From positions 323,139 through 387,138 of the forward strand of contig LCGL01000001.1 in the NCBI GenBank assembly GCA_000999715.1: DNA of 64,000 nt. Direction: 5' to 3'. The stretch comes from Candidatus Falkowbacteria bacterium GW2011_GWF2_43_32 (GTDB lineage Bacteria; Patescibacteriota; Patescibacteriia; Patescibacteriales; UBA12465). Shown here piece after piece: positions 4,335-50,919 of the stretch (its first letter is position 1; each line of letters starts with the position of its first letter). A program made the translations under genes and the position numbers. Under the pieces are notes generated by a model. The model ran no database searches and was not told where the DNA came from. It saw only the letters and a list, made by a program, of their open reading frames with translations.

Positions 4335-4364
4335 TAAAAAAGAGCTCCCGAAAGCTCATTTTTT
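4335..4364. terminator. bidirectional intrinsic terminator upstream of ndh
   Basis: Hairpin GAGCTCCCGAAAGCTC (4342-4357), flanked by an A-run on the left and TTTTTT on the right. Confidence 0.6.
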
Positions 4365-4416
4365 GTAAATATGGTATTTTCACCAACTATTTTTGGGCAT
4401 TAAACCATAAATTAAT

Positions 4417-4444
4417 ATAAAAAGCCCACGTTTTATAGTGGGCT
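4417..4444 (-). terminator. intrinsic terminator of mini-unit 1
   Basis: Minus strand reads AGCCCAC-TATAAAAC-GTGGGCT followed by TTTTTAT. Confidence 0.6.
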
Positions 4445-4480
4445 CTTGCCTTCTCCTTTAAAGGCATTAAACAGTTTGTG

Positions 4481-4582
4481 TTAATAACAACCCTGTTTCC
4501 CAGTCGTTTTCAACAACTCCCTCTTTTGGTGATTTCGTGGCGAGCCGCGAGAATTTTTAACACTTTTTCTAATGTACTTCAT
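4481..4582 (-). CDS. 33-aa highly basic small protein (mini-unit 1), function unknown
   Basis: Own translation: MKYIRKSVKNSRGSPRNHQKRELLKTTGKQGCY*. A GGAGG sequence lies 8 nt upstream of the ATG, which is rare in this window. The ORF has its own TTGACA-17-TATTAT promoter and its own terminator. It is too short for the ORF track. Confidence 0.45.
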   Translation of the reverse strand: MKYIRKSVKNSRGSPRNHQKRELLKTTGKQGCY

Positions 4583-4652: not shown

Positions 4653-4733
4653 TTGGTTTACTTTCTCACAAAGAATCTATATTTTTAAAACAAAAAATGA
4701 CCATAAAATTATTTTTATACACCCCCTTACGGG

Positions 4734-4793
4734 GTGGCTAACCGCAAAACTTGGCAAACTTTTTTGATGGAGTGCTTGATACATTAAAAAAAA
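4734..4793. repeat. conserved inter-unit module, copy M1
   Basis: Plus strand: gtggctaaccgcaaaacttggcaaacttttttgatggagtgcttgatacattaaaaaaaacc. The first 40 nt differ from M4 at only 2 positions. All four copies share the core AAACTTG(G/A)(C/A)AAACTTTTTTGAT. Confidence 0.85.
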
Positions 4794-5013
4794 CCACCTA
4801 CATGAGATGGTTTTTGTAAAATAGTTCTTTAAGATACCGCAGTGATATCGCAATCCGCAAAGAGCTTCGGCCCACCCTCACAGGATGATTTTTTTATGCC
4901 TTAGCTACAATTCTGGGTTATCAACTCTTAGTGAGGACTTCCCCTTTAATTAGGTTAACCATCTTGCGAGTGATGGTCAGATACTTTGCCTAACTTTCTC
5001 AAAAAGAACTATA
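4785..5013 (-). ncRNA. candidate non-coding RNA A (mini-unit 2), about 229 nt, unknown family
   Basis: A promoter (TTGACT-16-TAAGAT) lies upstream. The terminator hairpin AACCATCT-CATGT-AGGTGGTT plus a U8 run is at 4812-4784. No start codon with a usable ORF is present. The 5' end (5012-5003) is perfectly complementary over 10 bp to 4830-4821, just before the terminator. There is also an internal hairpin ACCATC/GATGGT. Confidence 0.5.
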
Positions 5014-5018
5014 TTTAA

Positions 5019-5046
5019 ATCTTAACATTAGTATTCAAAAAGTCAA
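5019..5046 (-). promoter_or_regulatory. sigma70-type promoter of mini-unit 2
   Basis: Minus strand: TTGACT (5046-5041), 16-nt spacer, TAAGAT (5024-5019). Confidence 0.5.
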
Positions 5047-5112
5047 TAGATTGTACAACATTAAACTTAAAACAAAAAATAATTCCTAAAAAGAAATTGT
5101 TTTTATATATGA

Positions 5113-5176
5113 GTGGCTATTCGAGAAACTTGAAAAACTTTTTTGATTAAATATTTGATAAATTGATATAAAAAAG
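5113..5176. repeat. conserved inter-unit module, copy M2
   Basis: Plus strand: gtggctattcgagaaacttgaaaaacttttttgattaaatatttgataaattgatataaaaaag. It differs from M3 at about 1 position over roughly 48 nt. Confidence 0.85.
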
Positions 5177-5245: not shown

Positions 5246-5398
5246 TTAAACCTCAAAATTTTCCCTAATGGAGTAAAGAAACGCCAACATGAAAGCTGCG
5301 CCAGCGCAAGCTAGAGTTATAACTGATGCTTCAGACTTCCAGTAAAAAACAAAAATGCCAAAAAGAATTGCTGTAAAATAATTAAAGAATGTTTTCAT
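5246..5398 (-). CDS. 50-aa two-TM hydrophobic peptide (mini-unit 3)
   Basis: Codon-by-codon translation: MKTFFNYFTAILFGIFVFYWKSEASVITLACAGAAFMLAFLYSIRENFEV*. An AGGAG sequence lies 9 nt upstream of the ATG. The ORF has its own promoter, a roughly 115-nt leader and a terminator. Confidence 0.5.
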   Translation of the reverse strand: MKTFFNYFTAILFGIFVFYWKSEASVITLACAGAAFMLAFLYSIRENFEV

Positions 5399-5430
5399 AA
5401 CTTATGACTCCTATTTTTAATGTTAAATAT

Positions 5431-5486
5431 AATTAGATTAATTATTAAGTTTACTAACATTAATAGACTTAATAATTAATCTAATT
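5431..5486. promoter_or_regulatory. perfect 20-bp inverted repeat in the 5' leader of mini-unit 3
   Basis: aattagattaattattaagt (5431-5450) is the exact reverse complement of 5467-5486, with a 16-nt loop. It lies between the predicted start site (about 5512) and the SD/ATG (5398). Confidence 0.8.
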
Positions 5487-5519
5487 TTAACCTTTTTGTA
5501 ATGAACTATATAACTAAAT

Positions 5520-5548
5520 AATATATCACATATATTATATTTTGTCAA
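5520..5548 (-). promoter_or_regulatory. sigma70-type promoter of mini-unit 3 (extended -10)
   Basis: Minus strand: TTGACA (5548-5543), 17-nt spacer ending in TGTGA, TATATT (5525-5520). Confidence 0.6.
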
Positions 5549-5635
5549 TCAATTTATATTATTTAATACTGTTGAGCCACATTTTAACCTTACATAATAG
5601 AAAAACCGAGCTTTCGGACCCGTGCTTTCCTTAAT

Positions 5636-5929
5636 CTATTCCCAAAAAATTAATACCAATGAAACAACCCCCAACAAGAAACCGATGATTTGAATTCTAT
5701 TAATCGGCTCCTTATAAAGCACCATCCCCAATATTACTGCGATAATAGCCGACGCCACAGAAAAAATAATTGCTCCTCTTCCTAGTCCGGCTCCATTTTT
5801 AAGAGAAAACAACCAAAAAGAATTTGCCACCAAATAAAGAGCAAGGCTGATTATTGCAAACCAAATTATTTTTTTTAGCGACCACTCTTTTGCAAATACG
5901 TCAGCAACTGCTTCAAAAATTATTAACAA
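5636..5929 (-). CDS. SMR/EmrE-like small multidrug-resistance-family membrane protein, possibly 5'-truncated
   Basis: 97 aa with four TM segments. The motif IIFEAVADVFAKEW aligns with the EmrE TM1 segment ILAEVIGTTLMKF, including the membrane-embedded Glu. The start is a TTG with no SD, only 5 nt from module M3. Confidence 0.5.
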   Translation of the reverse strand: MLIIFEAVADVFAKEWSLKKIIWFAIISLALYLVANSFWLFSLKNGAGLGRGAIIFSVASAIIAVILGMVLYKEPINRIQIIGFLLGVVSLVLIFWE

Positions 5930-5934
5930 TAAAA

Positions 5935-5988
5935 GCGGAAAACTTGAAAAACTTTTTTGATTAAGTATTTGATAAATTGATATAAAGA
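5935..5988. repeat. conserved inter-unit module, copy M3 (left part missing)
   Basis: Plus strand: gcggaaaacttgaaaaacttttttgattaagtatttgataaattgatataaagag. It lacks the GTGGCTA.. left end found in M1, M2 and M4. The SMR-like ORF starts where that end would be. Confidence 0.85.
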
Positions 5989-6238
5989 GAGGGCTAATTG
6001 CTTAGCCCTCAAAAATTTAGAACTCGTTGAACTGCTTTCAAGGCTATTTCACTCTATTCGCCCCTTCGATTAATAAGGACGGTATCTTATTTTTGACTCC
6101 GCTAAAGCTGGCGCCCTAGGTTCACAGTCTCCCGCCTATTCTGCACATTACTAATCTATCTTCAAGCCAACATACAGGAATTGGACCCGCTGGAGATATA
6201 ATCTCTTGCGCCCATTGCGCTACATTGTTTCTAAATTT
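5985..6238 (-). ncRNA. candidate non-coding RNA B (mini-unit 5), about 255 nt, unknown family
   Basis: The promoter is TTGACA-17-TAATAT. The terminator-like hairpin GAGGGCTAAGCAATTAGCCCTC (6010-5989) has only a weak U-tract. No ORF longer than 9 codons is present. The 5' end (6238-6228) pairs over 11 bp with 6023-6013, just before the terminal hairpin, which is the same architecture as RNA A. Confidence 0.45.
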
Positions 6239-6244
6239 AATTAA

Positions 6245-6273: not shown

Positions 6274-6346
6274 CAAAAATACAGCAAGATCTATTTTAAC
6301 CCTCATATCCCAGAAAAAAGCAAAATAGTTCATTTTTCCCAAATAG

Positions 6347-6410
6347 GTGGTTAATCGCAAAACTTGGCAAACTTTTTTGATGGAGTATTTGGTGAGTTGA
6401 TAAAAAAGAG
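6347..6410. repeat. conserved inter-unit module, copy M4
   Basis: Plus strand: gtggttaatcgcaaaacttggcaaacttttttgatggagtatttggtgagttgataaaaaagag. Confidence 0.85.
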
Positions 6411-6459: not shown

Positions 6460-6609
6460 TTACATAAACATCAGAGACATCAAAATAAATACCGCAGCAA
6501 TAGCCCACGCAAGCGATGATTTTTTAGATTTTTTTTTAAAACTAAAATATAAACAAAGAATACCGGTAATGAATACTAACACTTTTAAAATTAGAATAAA
6601 AATTTCCAT
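6460..6609 (-). CDS. 49-aa two-TM hydrophobic peptide (mini-unit 6)
   Basis: Codon-by-codon translation: MEIFILILKVLVFITGILCLYFSFKKKSKKSSLAWAIAAVFILMSLMFM*. It has the same TM-charged loop-TM layout as the 5246-5398 peptide. Its leader carries a degenerate version of the unit-3 palindrome. The SD is weak (AGAAA). Confidence 0.4.
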   Translation of the reverse strand: MEIFILILKVLVFITGILCLYFSFKKKSKKSSLAWAIAAVFILMSLMFM

Positions 6610-6717
6610 TATTTCTATTTTTTAATTTAACAATTCGATTAATTCTTAAATTTACTATTTATAATAAACTTAATAATTAACCCAATCGTTTTTTGTAAAA
6701 GAACTATATAACGAAAT

Positions 6718-6746
6718 ATCATATCACATTTACTATTTTTTGTCAA
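6718..6746 (-). promoter_or_regulatory. sigma70-type promoter of mini-unit 6 (extended -10)
   Basis: Minus strand: TTGACA (6746-6741), 17-nt spacer ending in TGTGA, TATGAT (6723-6718). Confidence 0.6.
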
Positions 6747-6838
6747 TTAATTTGTCTTCCCACTAGGGGGTAACAAGACCAAAACAAAAAATAACCCCAA
6801 TCCGCCAGCCGGCGGAGGAGTTATTTTCGCTAATATTA

Positions 6839-7057
6839 GGGTGCCTACTGGGAGTATCTCACTCAGCCGCCGCCGGAAACGCGGCGGCTTCGCTCGTCCT
6901 GGGTTGGCGCCGAGCCCTGCGCCAGCTCGGGTTCGTCGACGCTCGTCCGCTCATTTCGGCTTCCGCCTCAACTCGCGTCTCGCTTCCAACCTGTTCAACT
7001 TCCCGGCTAACGCCGACAGTAATAAAAGAACGCGCAAATGCGCGTTTTTTTATTACT
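6839..7057 (-). repeat. tRNA-His trailer module: hairpin, inverted T-arm copy, GC-rich spacer, 17-bp repeat of the tRNA 3' end
   Basis: gggtgcctactgggagt occurs at 6839-6855 and again at 7058-7074 inside the tRNA (17/17). The hairpin is at 7018-7057. gttcaacttccc (6993-7004) is an inverted T-arm copy. The spacer at 6856-6992 is GC-rich. Confidence 0.85.
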
Positions 7058-7058
7058 G

Positions 7059-7130
7059 GGTGCCTACTGGGAGTTGAACCCAGACTATCGGGACCACAAC
7101 CCGACGTTCTACCGCTAAACTATAGGCACC
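7059..7130 (-). tRNA. tRNA-His (anticodon GUG) with encoded G-1
   Basis: Cloverleaf read by eye: GGTGCCTA acceptor including G-1:C73, anticodon stem TCGGG/CCCGA, loop TTGTGGT, T-arm TGGGTTCAACTCCCA. Confidence 0.85.
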
Positions 7131-11853: not shown

Positions 11854-12978
11854 TTATTGTCCGATAGGCATAACGATATAAAGATAGTTATTGTCTTTTT
11901 CCGGTTTTAATAAAAACGGTTGTTTGTCGTTAAGAAGTCCGATTTTAACACGATCGTCATCAATATTATTTAGGCCGTCAAGTAAATAGCGGAAATTAAT
12001 GGTAATCTCGTTATCGCCACCGCTTACTTCCGCGGCCACTTCTATCTGACTTTCTCCGCTTGCCCCGGAAGACGCGGAAACGATAACTTTATTTTTATTA
12101 AAATTCAAAGTGACATCATTAAGGCCGGTTTTGGAAAACAGGGCGGCGGCTTTAACAGCGCGAAGTAGTTCTGTGCGTTCAATAATTGCCTCCATTTGGC
12201 TTTGCGCGGGAATGATTTGCTTATAGTCCGGATAATGACCGTTAACCAGACGGGAAATCAGACTAACCGAATCAATTGTAAATAAAATTTGATTATCGGA
12301 TAAATAAATTTTAATTTCCGGCGTTCCTTCGATATTACCGGAATCAAAATTATTTAAGATTCTCAATAATTCTTGAATCGTCTTGGCGGGAACAATAACT
12401 TTATGTTCTGCACTACTTTCATCTGCTAGAGCGGCAATTTCTTTTTCCGCCAAACGATAACTGTCCGTGGCCGCCAAACTTAGGCGGTTTTTAATAAAAG
12501 AAAACAAAACGCCGGTTAACTCTACCCTGTTTTCGCTGGTCGCGACCGCAAAAACAACGCTATTAAGGGCTCTCTTTAGGTCGTCCGCCTGACAAACATA
12601 GGGATTGTCTTTGGGAATGGTGGGGATTAAAGGAAATTCTTTGGCCTCCTCACCTTTTATTTTTGTTTTATAGTTTCCGCACTCAACCGCCAACTCGCTT
12701 TCTTTAACTTCAACTTTTACTTTTTCTCCGCTATTCAATAAATTAACATATTCGGTAATCAGTTTGGCGTCCACCGTAAACTGTCCGTCTTTTTCGATTT
12801 TTCCGCGAACCTGATGAACGACCCCAATTTCCAGGTTGGTGCTTACCAGTTCAATATTTCCTCCCTCGACTTTAATTAAAATATTATTAAGAATCGGAAG
12901 ATTAATATTCTTGGCGGTGGCATGACCGACAATATTTAAACCGCGTTTTAAATTTTCTTGTAAACCGATGAAACGCAT
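11854..12978 (-). CDS. dnaN: DNA polymerase III beta sliding clamp
   Basis: 374 aa located immediately downstream of dnaA. It has the typical MRF....L...L start and the three-domain length of a sliding clamp. Confidence 0.9.
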   Translation of the reverse strand: MRFIGLQENLKRGLNIVGHATAKNINLPILNNILIKVEGGNIELVSTNLEIGVVHQVRGKIEKDGQFTVDAKLITEYVNLLNSGEKVKVEVKESELAVECGNYKTKIKGEEAKEFPLIPTIPKDNPYVCQADDLKRALNSVVFAVATSENRVELTGVLFSFIKNRLSLAATDSYRLAEKEIAALADESSAEHKVIVPAKTIQELLRILNNFDSGNIEGTPEIKIYLSDNQILFTIDSVSLISRLVNGHYPDYKQIIPAQSQMEAIIERTELLRAVKAAALFSKTGLNDVTLNFNKNKVIVSASSGASGESQIEVAAEVSGGDNEITINFRYLLDGLNNIDDDRVKIGLLNDKQPFLLKPEKDNNYLYIVMPIGQ

Positions 12979-30209: not shown

Positions 30210-31628
30210 ATGAAAAGAAAAATAATTTTTGGTCTTCTATTTAGAAGAATGGCCGATAATAAATCGAATTTAAATAATAAACGGGGCTTAAATTTAGGAA
30301 TTTGTATTTTAACATTTACGGTCCTTTTTTCTTGGCCTTTAGTCGCGCTTAAAGCGGGAGGAGAAATAGAATTGATAACCCAACCAATATTGTCTAAAGT
30401 CGAAACAACGGAAACGGAGTCGGAATCGGAGGTTGAAATAATTAGTTTACAGGAACAGATAGTAATGGCCTTAGCTTCGTTTACTAAGACTTTACAAATA
30501 GGGGCGACGGGTGACGAAGTTCGGCAGTTGCAAACAATTTTAAAAATTTATCCGGAAATTTATCCGGAAGGAGTGGTGACCGGTTATTATGGTCCACTTA
30601 CCGAAATGGCTGTACGACGTTTTCAAATTAAAGAAGAAATAGAGGTTGCCGGGGTTGTCGGTCCGTTGACTAGAGATAAATTAAATGGATTAATAGCTAA
30701 GGAAACGACCGGGACAGTCGGTCCGACCGGGGCCACCGGCGAAACAGGCGCGACTGGTGCGGTTGGGACTACCGGAGCGGTTGGCGAAACTGGCGCGACC
30801 GGAGCTATCGGCGAAACCGGAACAACGGGTGCAATTGGCGAAACAGGAGCGCGAGGCAGGTCCGGTTCTTCCGGCTCAACCGGGGCCACCGGTGAAACAG
30901 GAGCGACCGGTTCCGTTGGAGCGACCGGGACAGAAGGTGCAGCCGGTGCTGTCGGCGACGCTGGGGCAGAAGGTGCGGCTGGCGTTGCTGGCGTTGCTGG
31001 CGACACTGGGGCAGAAGGTGCGGCTGGCGCTGTCGGAGCAGCTGGAGCAGAAGGTGCGATTGGTGCAACCGGTATTGAGGGCGCCGCCGGTGAAGCTGGC
31101 GTTGCTGGCCCGGCTGGGGCAATCGGCGAAACCGGGGCCACCGGCGAAACAGGCGCGACTGGAGCGACTGGAGTTATTTTGTCCGCTCAATATGTTCAGC
31201 TGGGAGCACAGCCGGCAACAGTGGGCGCCGGTCAACCATTTACTTATACTACCGAGGTCTTATCCACGCCGGGCATTACTTTTGAAACCGCGGTATTTAA
31301 TCCGCCGTTTATTACGAGCGGCACAATTTTTACTTTAGCCAATGTCGGACGGTATGAAATAAATTATCAAATGACCTACCCGACGGACGGTGGCATTGTC
31401 TTATATTTTGGCTCGACCATTCCGACAATGTTGCCGCTTCCTTATACGATGATCGGGAAAACCACAGACGGATCGGTTAGCGGTAGAATAATCATTCAAA
31501 CCACGACGCCAAATTCATTTTTAAGCGTTAATGCCGCGGCCGGAAACGCGGCGGCAATTGATATACCGGCGAATACCAGCACCACCAATCAAAGCGCGAC
31601 CACAATATCGTTTAAGCAGATTCAATAA
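30210..31628 (+). CDS. collagen-like (Gly-X-Thr/Ala triplet repeat) protein with a PG_binding_1-like domain and a C-terminal globular domain
   Basis: 472 aa. It has an N-terminal TM/signal segment, a peptidoglycan-binding-like stretch ([11 protein letters not shown]...[15 protein letters not shown]), about 150 aa of uninterrupted G-x-y triplets (nt 30711-31172), and then a roughly 150-aa non-repetitive C-terminal domain. Confidence 0.75.
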
Positions 31629-50598: not shown

Positions 50599-50672
50599 GG
50601 GCCATTAGCTCAGTTGGCTAGAGCGCTTCCATGGCATGGAAGAGGTCAAGGGTTCAAGTCCCTTATGGTCCA
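50599..50672 (+). tRNA. tRNA-Ala (anticodon GGC)
   Basis: Acceptor GGGCCAT/ATGGTCC with G3:U70, anticodon stem CTTCC/GGAAG, loop ATGGCAT, T-loop TTCAAGT. Confidence 0.85.
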
Positions 50673-50919
50673 CTAAAAAAAAGAACCCCACCTGCGTGGG
50701 GTTCTTTTTTTAAGATTGAAAGCATAAGGGACTTGAAAGCCGGAGGCGATGCGCACTTGTGCGCCGCCGAGGCCGGGTCGGGGCGCTTAGCGAGTGAGAC
50801 TTGCGAAGCAAGCGAGCGAGGCTTAGCGACCGTGACCAAGTCCCTTATGGTCCACTAATGAAAACAACCCGAACTGCTTTGGGTTGTTTTCATTAAAGAT
50901 AAAAATAAGGGACTTGAAC
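50673..50919 (+). repeat. tRNA-Ala(GGC) trailer module, doubled: hairpin, inverted T-arm, GC-rich spacer, 22-bp 3'-end repeat, second hairpin, second inverted T-arm
   Basis: caagtcccttatggtccactaa occurs at 50655-50676 and 50837-50858 (22/22). cataagggacttgaa (50723-50737) and ataagggacttgaac (50905-50919) are 15-nt exact inverted copies of the T-arm. Hairpins are at 50676-50712 and 50859-50895. The GC-rich spacer is at 50738-50836. Confidence 0.85.

Follow-up and report, generated by a model that had tools for sequence, protein, structure and literature searches.

A candidate end-clamped RNA cassette without an open reading frame beside tRNA-His in a Candidatus Falkowbacteria genome

Introduction

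6S RNA (RF00013) is about 190 nt long, with paired 5′ and 3′ ends and a rod-like overall fold. In riboswitches, the standard layout has a P1 helix that joins the ends of the aptamer and a terminator directly after it; riboswitch and T-box leaders can also carry a kink-turn and an internal segment that pairs with the 5′ arm of the terminator. Type I antitoxin small RNAs (sRNAs) such as IstR-1 and OhsC are encoded by small, terminator-ended RNA genes beside genes for hydrophobic peptides of ~50 amino acids (aa) with long structured 5′ untranslated regions (UTRs), and the cassettes of chromosomal integrons that lack an open reading frame (ORF) are short non-coding units in arrays of small same-orientation cassettes. 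Here we describe RNA A, a predicted RNA that resembles each of these in part. It is encoded on the minus strand at positions 4785-5013 of the window, by which we mean the whole 64,000-nt stretch that was analyzed (contig LCGL01000001.1, positions 323,139 to 387,138) from Candidatus Falkowbacteria bacterium GW2011_GWF2_43_32 (GCA_000999715.1), a metagenome-assembled genome (MAG) of the Candidate Phyla Radiation (CPR; Patescibacteria). To our knowledge almost nothing is known of the non-coding RNAs of CPR bacteria, and when we searched the literature for Falkowbacteria, L1-stalk mimics, structured RNAs of CPR bacteria and integron-like arrays in the CPR, no relevant work came up.

We find that RNA A is best read as an orphan sRNA gene, real, non-random and unclassified, whose broad kind is that of the terminator-ended bacterial sRNAs. 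The more specific reading that we favor, tentatively and as something short of probable, is that it is an ORF-less, independently transcribed cassette for a stand-alone, stable, trans-acting, strain-specific structured sRNA of ~200 nt.

Results

Anatomy of RNA A

RNA A has a promoter, a terminator, a clamp that joins its ends, no coding potential, and cassette boundaries on both sides (Table 1). An initial inspection of the letters (the sequence-only reading) had proposed a promoter of the form TTGACT-16-TAAGAT and an intrinsic terminator. Both are present on the minus strand where they were placed; the -10 hexamer is also TG-extended, and the terminator is a strong one that pairs RNA positions 199-209 with 215-225. 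The judgment that no plausible ORF lies between them also holds: stops interrupt all six frames, and the sole listed ORF (4677-4853, TTG start, 58 aa) crosses the terminator into the next repeat module. RNA A is bounded by two such modules, as the protein cassettes around it are.

The ends of the predicted transcript had been noted as complementary, and they are exact 10-mers: ATAGTTCTTT (5012-5003) pairs without mismatch with AAAGAACTAT (4830-4821). The resulting 10-bp closing helix begins ~5-7 nt past the -10 hexamer, at the expected +1, and has an ensemble pair probability of 0.89. When the 196-nt core was shuffled 2000 times with dinucleotides preserved, no shuffle gave a perfect helix of at least 10 bp between the two 20-nt ends, and 4 of 300 shuffles gave a perfect 10-nt inverted repeat anywhere. 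Between the clamp arms lie ~150-170 nt of unique sequence. This unique part (RNA positions 29-180) has a GC content of 44%, against 19% and 30% in the flanking spacers, and 35 of the 74 unpaired positions are A. A GC-rich core with A-rich unpaired positions is usual for structured RNAs in AT-rich contexts, without being proof of one.

Table 1. Features of RNA A and of the array around it. Positions refer to the window; P, pair probability.
Feature	Position	Strand	Details
Sigma-70-type promoter	5019..5046	minus	-35 TTGACT (5046-5041), 16-nt spacer, TG-extended -10 TAAGAT (5024-5019); 9/12 match in consensus scan
Predicted RNA A transcript	4786..5012	minus	~227 nt including terminator; core ~196 nt
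Clamp 5′ arm AUAGUUCUUU	5003..5012	minus	RNA positions 2-11
Clamp 3′ arm AAAGAACUAU	4821..4830	minus	RNA positions 184-193; 5 nt ahead of terminator stem
Helix GCAAAG / CUUUGC	4984..4989 with 4862-4857	minus	RNA 25-30 / 152-157; P 0.76
18-bp interrupted stem, 5′ strand CCAUC-A-CUCGCA-A-GAUGGUU	4957..4976	minus	RNA 38-57; P about 0.9
18-bp interrupted stem, 3′ strand AAUCAUC-C-UGUGAG-G-GGUGG	4872..4890	minus	RNA 124-142; three G.U pairs, on the minus strand only
Apical domain, 66 nt	4891..4956	minus	RNA 58-123; includes A7 run
Apical hairpin GUCCUC-ACUAA-GAG..GAU	4938-4920	minus	RNA 76-81 / 87-94; P about 0.87
Candidate kink-turn	4867..4871 opposite 4977-4978	minus	Bulge G143 C144 C145; by-eye fit of helix table to published kink-turn consensus
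Intrinsic terminator AAAAACCAUCU-CAUGU-AGGUGGUUUUU	4789..4815	minus	11-bp stem, 5-nt loop, U-run and further U; consensus scan; P 0.96
Module X	5112..5172	minus	Upstream boundary of RNA A cassette; module profile E = 2.6e-14
Module Y	4733..4793	minus	Downstream boundary of RNA A cassette, begins at terminator U-run; module profile E = 1.3e-19
Array module copies	4733-4793 (Y), 5112-5172 (X), 5926-5986, 6346-6406	minus	Four in window; separate cassettes
RNA B	5985-6243	minus	Strong promoter, 10-bp 5′/3′ clamp directly before terminator, no ORF
33-aa very basic ORF MKYIRKSVKNSRGSPRNHQKRELLKTTGKQGCY	4481-4582	minus	Strong GGAGG Shine-Dalgarno; no Pfam or NCBIfam match

Predicted fold

RNA A is predicted to fold as a rod that runs from the clamp through a short helix, a possible kink-turn and an 18-bp interrupted stem to an apical domain. 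The minimum free energy (MFE) of the whole 229-nt unit is -62.2 kcal/mol (z = -2.96), and pair probabilities range over 0.76-0.91 for the main helices. Without the terminator, the core (-51.6 kcal/mol) is 9.6 kcal/mol more stable than its reverse complement (-42.0 kcal/mol, z = -1.15), owing to G.U pairs. The sequence-only reading had drawn attention to a helix ACCATC/GATGGT. This hairpin exists as a local alternative within the 5′ strand of the 18-bp stem, but it is minor (P 0.08), and the ensemble favors the long-range stem instead. The kink-turn-like pattern, seen by eye, has CCAUC/GGUGG as C-stem, followed by G146.A37 and A147.G36 and then by U35-A148 and C34-G149; the MFE fold shows a shifted register there.

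Comparison with known RNA families

We compared RNA A with the 4227 models of Rfam 15, at the gathering threshold over the whole window and at E <= 10 on 2.5 kb and on 261 nt (most permissive filters). No model matched 4785-5013 at the gathering threshold, and no family was supported in the E <= 10 scans. In the 261-nt search, the models for 6S (RF00013), RNase P, signal recognition particle (SRP) RNA and tmRNA gave no match even at E <= 10, and RNA A matched none of the riboswitch, T-box or PyrR leader models; ARAGORN found no tmRNA. As a control, the same permissive scan recovered the rRNA-like domain of a neighboring RNA, RNA B (see below), at E = 2e-12. The sequence-only reading had itself failed to match SRP, RNase P, 6S or tmRNA signatures. 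Its suggestion of a likeness to 6S, SRP or ribozyme scaffolds finds no support, with no credible Rfam family at E <= 10 and no copy of RNA A at related loci.

Two candidate likenesses were rejected. In the 261-nt scan the PyrR binding site gave the best Rfam match, with 16.9 bits (E = 4.7) where the gathering score is 54; this similarity (UCCUGUGAGG versus UCCAGAGAGG) is non-significant, and no pyr genes lie downstream. Mimicry of rRNA was dismissed for RNA A on the basis that it matches no large- or small-subunit rRNA model and that a blastn comparison with the 16S rRNA of the window and with the E. coli rrn operon returned chance matches only.

Search for relatives

Using the SpoU gene as an anchor, we assembled 13 syntenic loci (49-66% amino-acid identity), 11 of which retain the tRNA-Arg / tRNA-His pair. 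By blastn and nhmmer, RNA A is absent from these loci in the parts of those genomes that were searched, and a housekeeping RNA would not be expected to be missing, as RNA A is, at the syntenic tRNA-His locus of 11 related species. It is also absent from 45 array-bearing JGI metagenome loci (298 kb) retrieved by the module pattern, in which homologues of RNA B are present at 77-80% identity. A single-sequence covariance model run over 592 kb gave a best match of 15 bits (E = 0.3), three scans of IMG/VR with exact or gapped patterns derived from RNA A gave 0 matches, and blastn against phage and plasmid collections found no copy. Six-frame tblastn of RNA A against ~0.5 Mb of related loci showed no protein similarity; its 31-34-aa stop-free pieces were not run through a global protein-database search. 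The 64-kb window contains no paralogue, and a similarity between RNA positions 85-120 and 50538-50502 (E = 0.014) was set aside as chance level in AT-rich sequence, in an unrelated context.

All public contigs that carry the flanking genes and cover RNA A have the same bases there as the window, and some other contigs of the locus begin downstream of RNA A or just inside it. Specifically, contigs L005, L003 and L004 start at 5010 and 4772, which lie 3 nt inside the 5′ end of RNA A and at the junction of terminator and module Y. Contig starts at cassette borders are consistent with repeat-induced breaks or with population-level breakpoints.

A neighboring RNA of the same design

RNA B, two cassettes upstream of RNA A, shares its array and its strand. 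Like RNA A, it has a sigma-70 promoter, a 10-bp end clamp, a terminator, a length of ~230-260 nt, no ORF, and modules on both sides. The two share no sequence similarity by blastn or nhmmer, and their architecture alone is in common. They also differ in that RNA B is conserved with compensatory pairs and has an L1-stalk-like domain, whereas RNA A has no homologue and no rRNA-like domain.

Homologues of RNA B, conserved at 77-80% identity and also in their promoter, occur at three loci of two other metagenomic lineages (L041:2344-2615(-), L027:1708-1977(+) and L045:2109-2378(-), the last two identical to each other). From just three sequences, RNAalifold predicts 63 base pairs, 9 of them with compensatory double changes, and the clamp varies solely by A-U to G.U changes. 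In the other genomes RNA B precedes unrelated genes. A match to the entire L1 stalk of bacterial 23S rRNA spans 6068-6156 (50.4 and 44.2 bits; model positions 2126-2215). RNA B looks like a real, undescribed structured RNA and is possibly a decoy of the L1 or tRNA-elbow type.

Two independent assemblies (ENA contigs L069 and L070) end exactly at 6068, the edge of the L1-stalk-like segment. Breaks at exactly this position suggest that the genome carries the segment at another site as well, presumably the 23S gene.

We also scanned all array loci for the shared design, namely a helix between an upstream or promoter-proximal site and the bases that immediately precede a terminator. Most of the 12 matches fall within ORFs or low-complexity A/T runs; only RNA A and one homologue of RNA B are free of ORFs, not of low complexity, and preceded by a visible -35/-10. 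Since RNA B is conserved with compensatory pairs and has the same design, ORF-less end-clamped RNA cassettes exist in these arrays, which makes the reading of RNA A as a gene credible by analogy, without proving it.

The cassette array at tRNA-His

The 3 kb between tRNA-His (7129-7058) and the gene for an NDH-2-like oxidoreductase (4306-3104) is a chain of small minus-strand units. The units are separated by copies of a ~60-nt module with the consensus TATCAATTTACCAAATATTCCATCAAAAAAGTTTTCCAAGTTTTGCGATTAGCCACCCC; the terminator hairpin behind the module varies in sequence but retains its pairing. A hidden Markov model (HMM) of the module finds four true copies in the window, with E values of 1e-19 to 7e-11. 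Our alignment of 67 copies (55 unique) comprises 62 from 45 metagenome loci (L020-L064), 4 from the window and 1 from an IMG/VR contig (L006:14160). A related MAG (L014) holds two further modules outside these 67 (at 11963 and 12467), likewise downstream of tRNA-His. In the window, the payloads are, in order, a 49-aa membrane ORF, RNA B, a truncated EamA ORF, a 50-aa membrane ORF, RNA A and a 33-aa basic ORF. Past the last of these, two terminator-like hairpins (4340-4450) lie directly upstream of the NDH-2 / YceI / ZIP transporter genes. Decay is visible in the neighboring cassettes, in the truncated EamA ORF (5636-5929) and in degenerate module terminators.

The arrays carry small accessory genes, among them those for GNAT acetyltransferases, tiny membrane proteins, small unknown proteins, a 4Fe-4S protein, a SET-domain protein, DUF5677 and DUF4420. 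Thirteen module-adjacent ORFs are SpoU methylases, and the tRNA pair is present in most of the array loci scanned with Rfam; judged from these sequence neighbors, the arrays occupy a conserved hotspot, downstream of SpoU / tRNA-Arg / tRNA-His in Falkowbacteria-like genomes.

Like integron arrays, these arrays have same-orientation cassettes, a conserved repeat between them (~60-100 nt) and a cargo that varies among strains and species. They differ in starting at tRNA-His rather than at attI and in that many cassettes have their own promoter and terminator, and the R″/R′ ends of integron attC sites (RYYYAAC / GTTRRRY) are missing from all 55 unique module copies inspected. Within 3.5 kb of modules, on short contig pieces, 135 ORFs match 81 Pfam families, the 25 most common of which include no recombinase or integrase, and no integrase, transposase or invertase was seen in the neighborhood of the array in the window. 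The arrangement appears integron-like without the attC or IntI hallmarks, IntI having been looked for among those 25 families. The module end TTAGCCACCCC resembles the 3′ end of tRNA-His, and an att-like role for the module is one idea. A reading of the module as a sigma-28-like or sigma-54-like promoter was rejected, as a terminator follows within ~10 nt and the key bases are unconserved between copies.

Several other features of the region stand out. Two minus-strand copies of a promoter-plus-leader unit (5425-5560 and 6632-6758) are 81-82% identical, and the 5′ UTR contains an AU-rich, near-perfect hairpin of 30 bp; the copies drive two unrelated tiny membrane ORFs of 50 aa (5246-5398) and 49 aa (6460-6609), and their homology ends at the start codon. 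In the related MAG, a Cys-rich HNH-like ORF (L014:10962-11468, plus strand) lies between tRNA-Arg and tRNA-His, which are 6-62 nt apart in other relatives. The last 17-20 nt of tRNA-His (ACTCCCAGTAGGCACCC) recur ~180-220 nt downstream of it (6839-7074, minus strand), and those of tRNA-Ala(GGC) (AAGTCCCTTATGGTCCACTA) do so at a similar distance (~180-220 nt; 50656-50857, plus strand). Between the duplicates lie a terminator hairpin and a GC-rich ~130-160 nt, and the whole intervals have GC contents of 60% and 56%, against 42% in the genome. These intervals look like small insertions at tRNA 3′ ends. Further away, a 472-aa protein with a long collagen-like G-X-Y repeat (30210-31628, plus strand) explains a 480-nt stretch of more than 62% GC.

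Source genome and flanking gene

The 16S rRNA of the window is 1407 nt long; such a short 16S rRNA is usual in the CPR. The flanking NDH-2-like protein has 100% identical copies in DNKM01000001.1 (GCA_003489845.1), in a 418-kb JGI contig and in several Logan and ENA contigs. Among 5.8 billion proteins none is related to it at more than 36% identity, and its best matches are scattered across unrelated phyla, a pattern that suggests horizontal acquisition or extreme divergence. The lack of closer relatives makes the gene a poor synteny anchor and suggests that this species may have no sampled close relative.

Discussion

On the reading that we favor, transcription would start at ~5012 from the extended -10 promoter and halt at the terminator (4815-4789). 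The RNA would fold as a rod, its 10-bp helix clamping the 5′ end to the bases before the terminator. Clamp and terminator hairpin together would leave no free 5′ or 3′ single strand, so the RNA would be protected from end-dependent RNases and hence stable, and the A-rich apical domain and the internal loops would form its working surface. Because it is carried in a variable cassette array beside tRNA-His, RNA A is an accessory, strain-specific RNA and not a housekeeping one.

Several observations weigh against this reading. The promoter, at 9/12, falls below five neighboring TTGACA-17-TATxAT promoters and is the weakest in the island. The z-score of the core without the terminator, -2.0, is modest. 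A homologue was found in none of the searched sequence sets, which leaves RNA A with no support from conservation or covariation. The mode of action would most likely be that of a trans-acting protein-binding or decoy RNA rather than an antisense RNA, and what points to this is analogy with RNA B, which shares the design and mimics the ribosomal L1 stalk. Finally, parts of RNA A recur nearby: RNA positions 1-28 have an 83% identical counterpart at 4681-4653, ahead of the next promoter, and positions 117-143 resemble a U-less copy of its own terminator (18/30 by hand alignment), which hints at duplication.

These repeats bear on the main alternative, which we consider rather unlikely yet take seriously, in which RNA A is a non-functional relic. 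It would be a recombination or duplication chimera of promoter, leader, terminator and module pieces, perhaps with a fragment of a lost cassette inside, and any transcript would be incidental. The clamp would then be an inverted copy of the repeated leader element TATAGTTCTTT and not a selected structure. The 5′ arm and the ~15 nt that follow it do belong to a repeated island element, TATAGTTC(T/A)TT also following closely on the -10 hexamer in the promoters at 6746 and 5548, and the 3′ arm region and the leader of the 49-aa cassette show 84% complementarity over 19 nt and have TTTTACAAAAA in common. Since the 5′ arm lies in this repeated element, the clamp, non-random as it is, could have come from inverted duplication or recombination of island repeats instead of from selection for structure. 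The decay of neighboring cassettes and the status of RNA A as a singleton in 0.59 Mb of related sequence fit such an origin as well. A drifting relic, however, would not be expected to hold ~150 nt of unique core at 44% GC in a context of 19-30% GC, and the known repeats leave the 18-bp stem with its strand-specific G.U pairs unexplained. The promoter and the terminator are intact, and no frame shows protein similarity. Nor was a module remnant found inside RNA A: we tried RNA positions 116-172, plausible by eye, as a degenerate module, but the module HMM is silent there and the pairwise score against the terminator plus module was reached by 28 of 500 shuffles (p ~0.06).

A second alternative, which we regard as quite unlikely, is that RNA A is a cis-acting leader, either a riboswitch or an attenuator. 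The closing helix would serve as P1 in a sensor of ~180 nt, with the terminator as its expression platform, controlling read-through to the 33-aa ORF and the NDH-2 / YceI / ZIP genes; AGAUGGUU (RNA positions 50-57), once freed from the 18-bp stem, would pair with the terminator 5′ arm AACCAUCU (202-209) as an antiterminator. The sequence-only reading had called a closing helix untypical of a UTR, which is too strong: riboswitches canonically have a P1 with a terminator behind it, so that the helix gives no ground for dismissing a cis-regulatory role. The 8-nt complementarity is exact, the CCAUC / GRUGG arms form three interchangeable pairs, and the possible kink-turn is a motif of several riboswitch and T-box leaders. 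The downstream genes are on the same strand, with more terminator-like hairpins ahead of NDH-2. Unlike in such leaders, however, no gene follows directly. A full module and a separate strong promoter (4652-4624, 11/12) stand between the terminator and the next ORF, and by the logic of the array the RNA A unit ends at the module. The antiterminator fold, when forced, reaches only -50.7 against -62.2 kcal/mol, a cost of 11.5 kcal/mol that strongly disfavors it (pair probability about 0), and there is no overlap between P1 and the terminator. RNA A matches none of the riboswitch, T-box or PyrR models, and RNA B, with the same layout, stands before unrelated genes in other genomes.

We think it very unlikely that RNA A is an antisense or type I antitoxin-like RNA that pairs with the mRNAs of the adjacent 49-aa and 50-aa membrane-protein cassettes. 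An RNA cassette comes after each small hydrophobic ORF (RNA B after the 49-aa one, RNA A after the 50-aa one), and the 3′ clamp arm AAAGAACUAU has a complement of 10 nt where the 49-aa leader begins and one of 7 nt in the 50-aa leader; both leaders carry TATAGTTC at their 5′ ends. Against this, the complementarity extends over 7-10 nt, short of the ~18 nt or more typical of a type I toxin-antitoxin pair, and uses the same segment as the intramolecular clamp, duplex energies with all neighboring leaders are no better than those of shuffled RNA (z -0.3 to +1.2), and the 64-kb window contains no antisense match of at least about 20 nt. The peptides match no toxin family, and RNA B is not beside such ORFs elsewhere.

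A divergent housekeeping RNA (6S-like, or a reduced RNase P or SRP RNA), missed by Rfam in a deep-branching lineage, is highly improbable. The length of ~190 nt, the paired ends and the rod-like fold recall 6S RNA, and GGGGAAGUCC loosely recalls the CR-I region of RNase P by eye, with no P4 partner. The hallmark of 6S is a long closing stem, a large central bubble and a long terminal stem with a small loop, whereas RNA A has a short 10-bp closing stem with its largest internal loop directly above and, at the apex, a 66-nt multi-helix domain in place of a stem-loop. Unlike 6S, it matches no housekeeping model, is absent from the SpoU / tRNA-Arg / tRNA-His neighborhood of 11 related species and from 45 related arrays, and is sited in a variable accessory array. 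We give just as little credence to a DNA-level element with the arms as terminal inverted repeats (a miniature inverted-repeat transposable element or an invertible segment): a perfect 10-bp inverted repeat does bound a ~190-bp non-coding segment in a repeat-rich region, but it is single-copy in the window and absent from related loci, has no target-site duplication and no transposase or invertase nearby, has a 5′ arm that is part of the shared leader element and not of an inserted unit, and contains G.U-dependent internal stems that favor pairing at the RNA level.

Returning to RNA A as a structured sRNA gene, a bolder extension by analogy, which we consider improbable though worth stating, is that RNA A and RNA B would belong to an undescribed class of ORF-less RNA cassettes that travel with small accessory protein genes in the module-delimited tRNA-His array of Falkowbacteria-like CPR bacteria. 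RNA A might then be a second mimic or decoy, possibly based on a kink-turn, that titrates a host or phage RNA-binding protein. On its own RNA A is a singleton, and its main value is as a pointer to RNA B and to the previously unannotated array of ~60-nt modules, both of which are open to comparative study. If RNA A is a real RNA gene, the variable accessory regions of CPR genomes carry structured RNAs besides small proteins; if the two RNAs do form a class, structured RNAs would be exchanged as mobile accessory cargo in reduced genomes.

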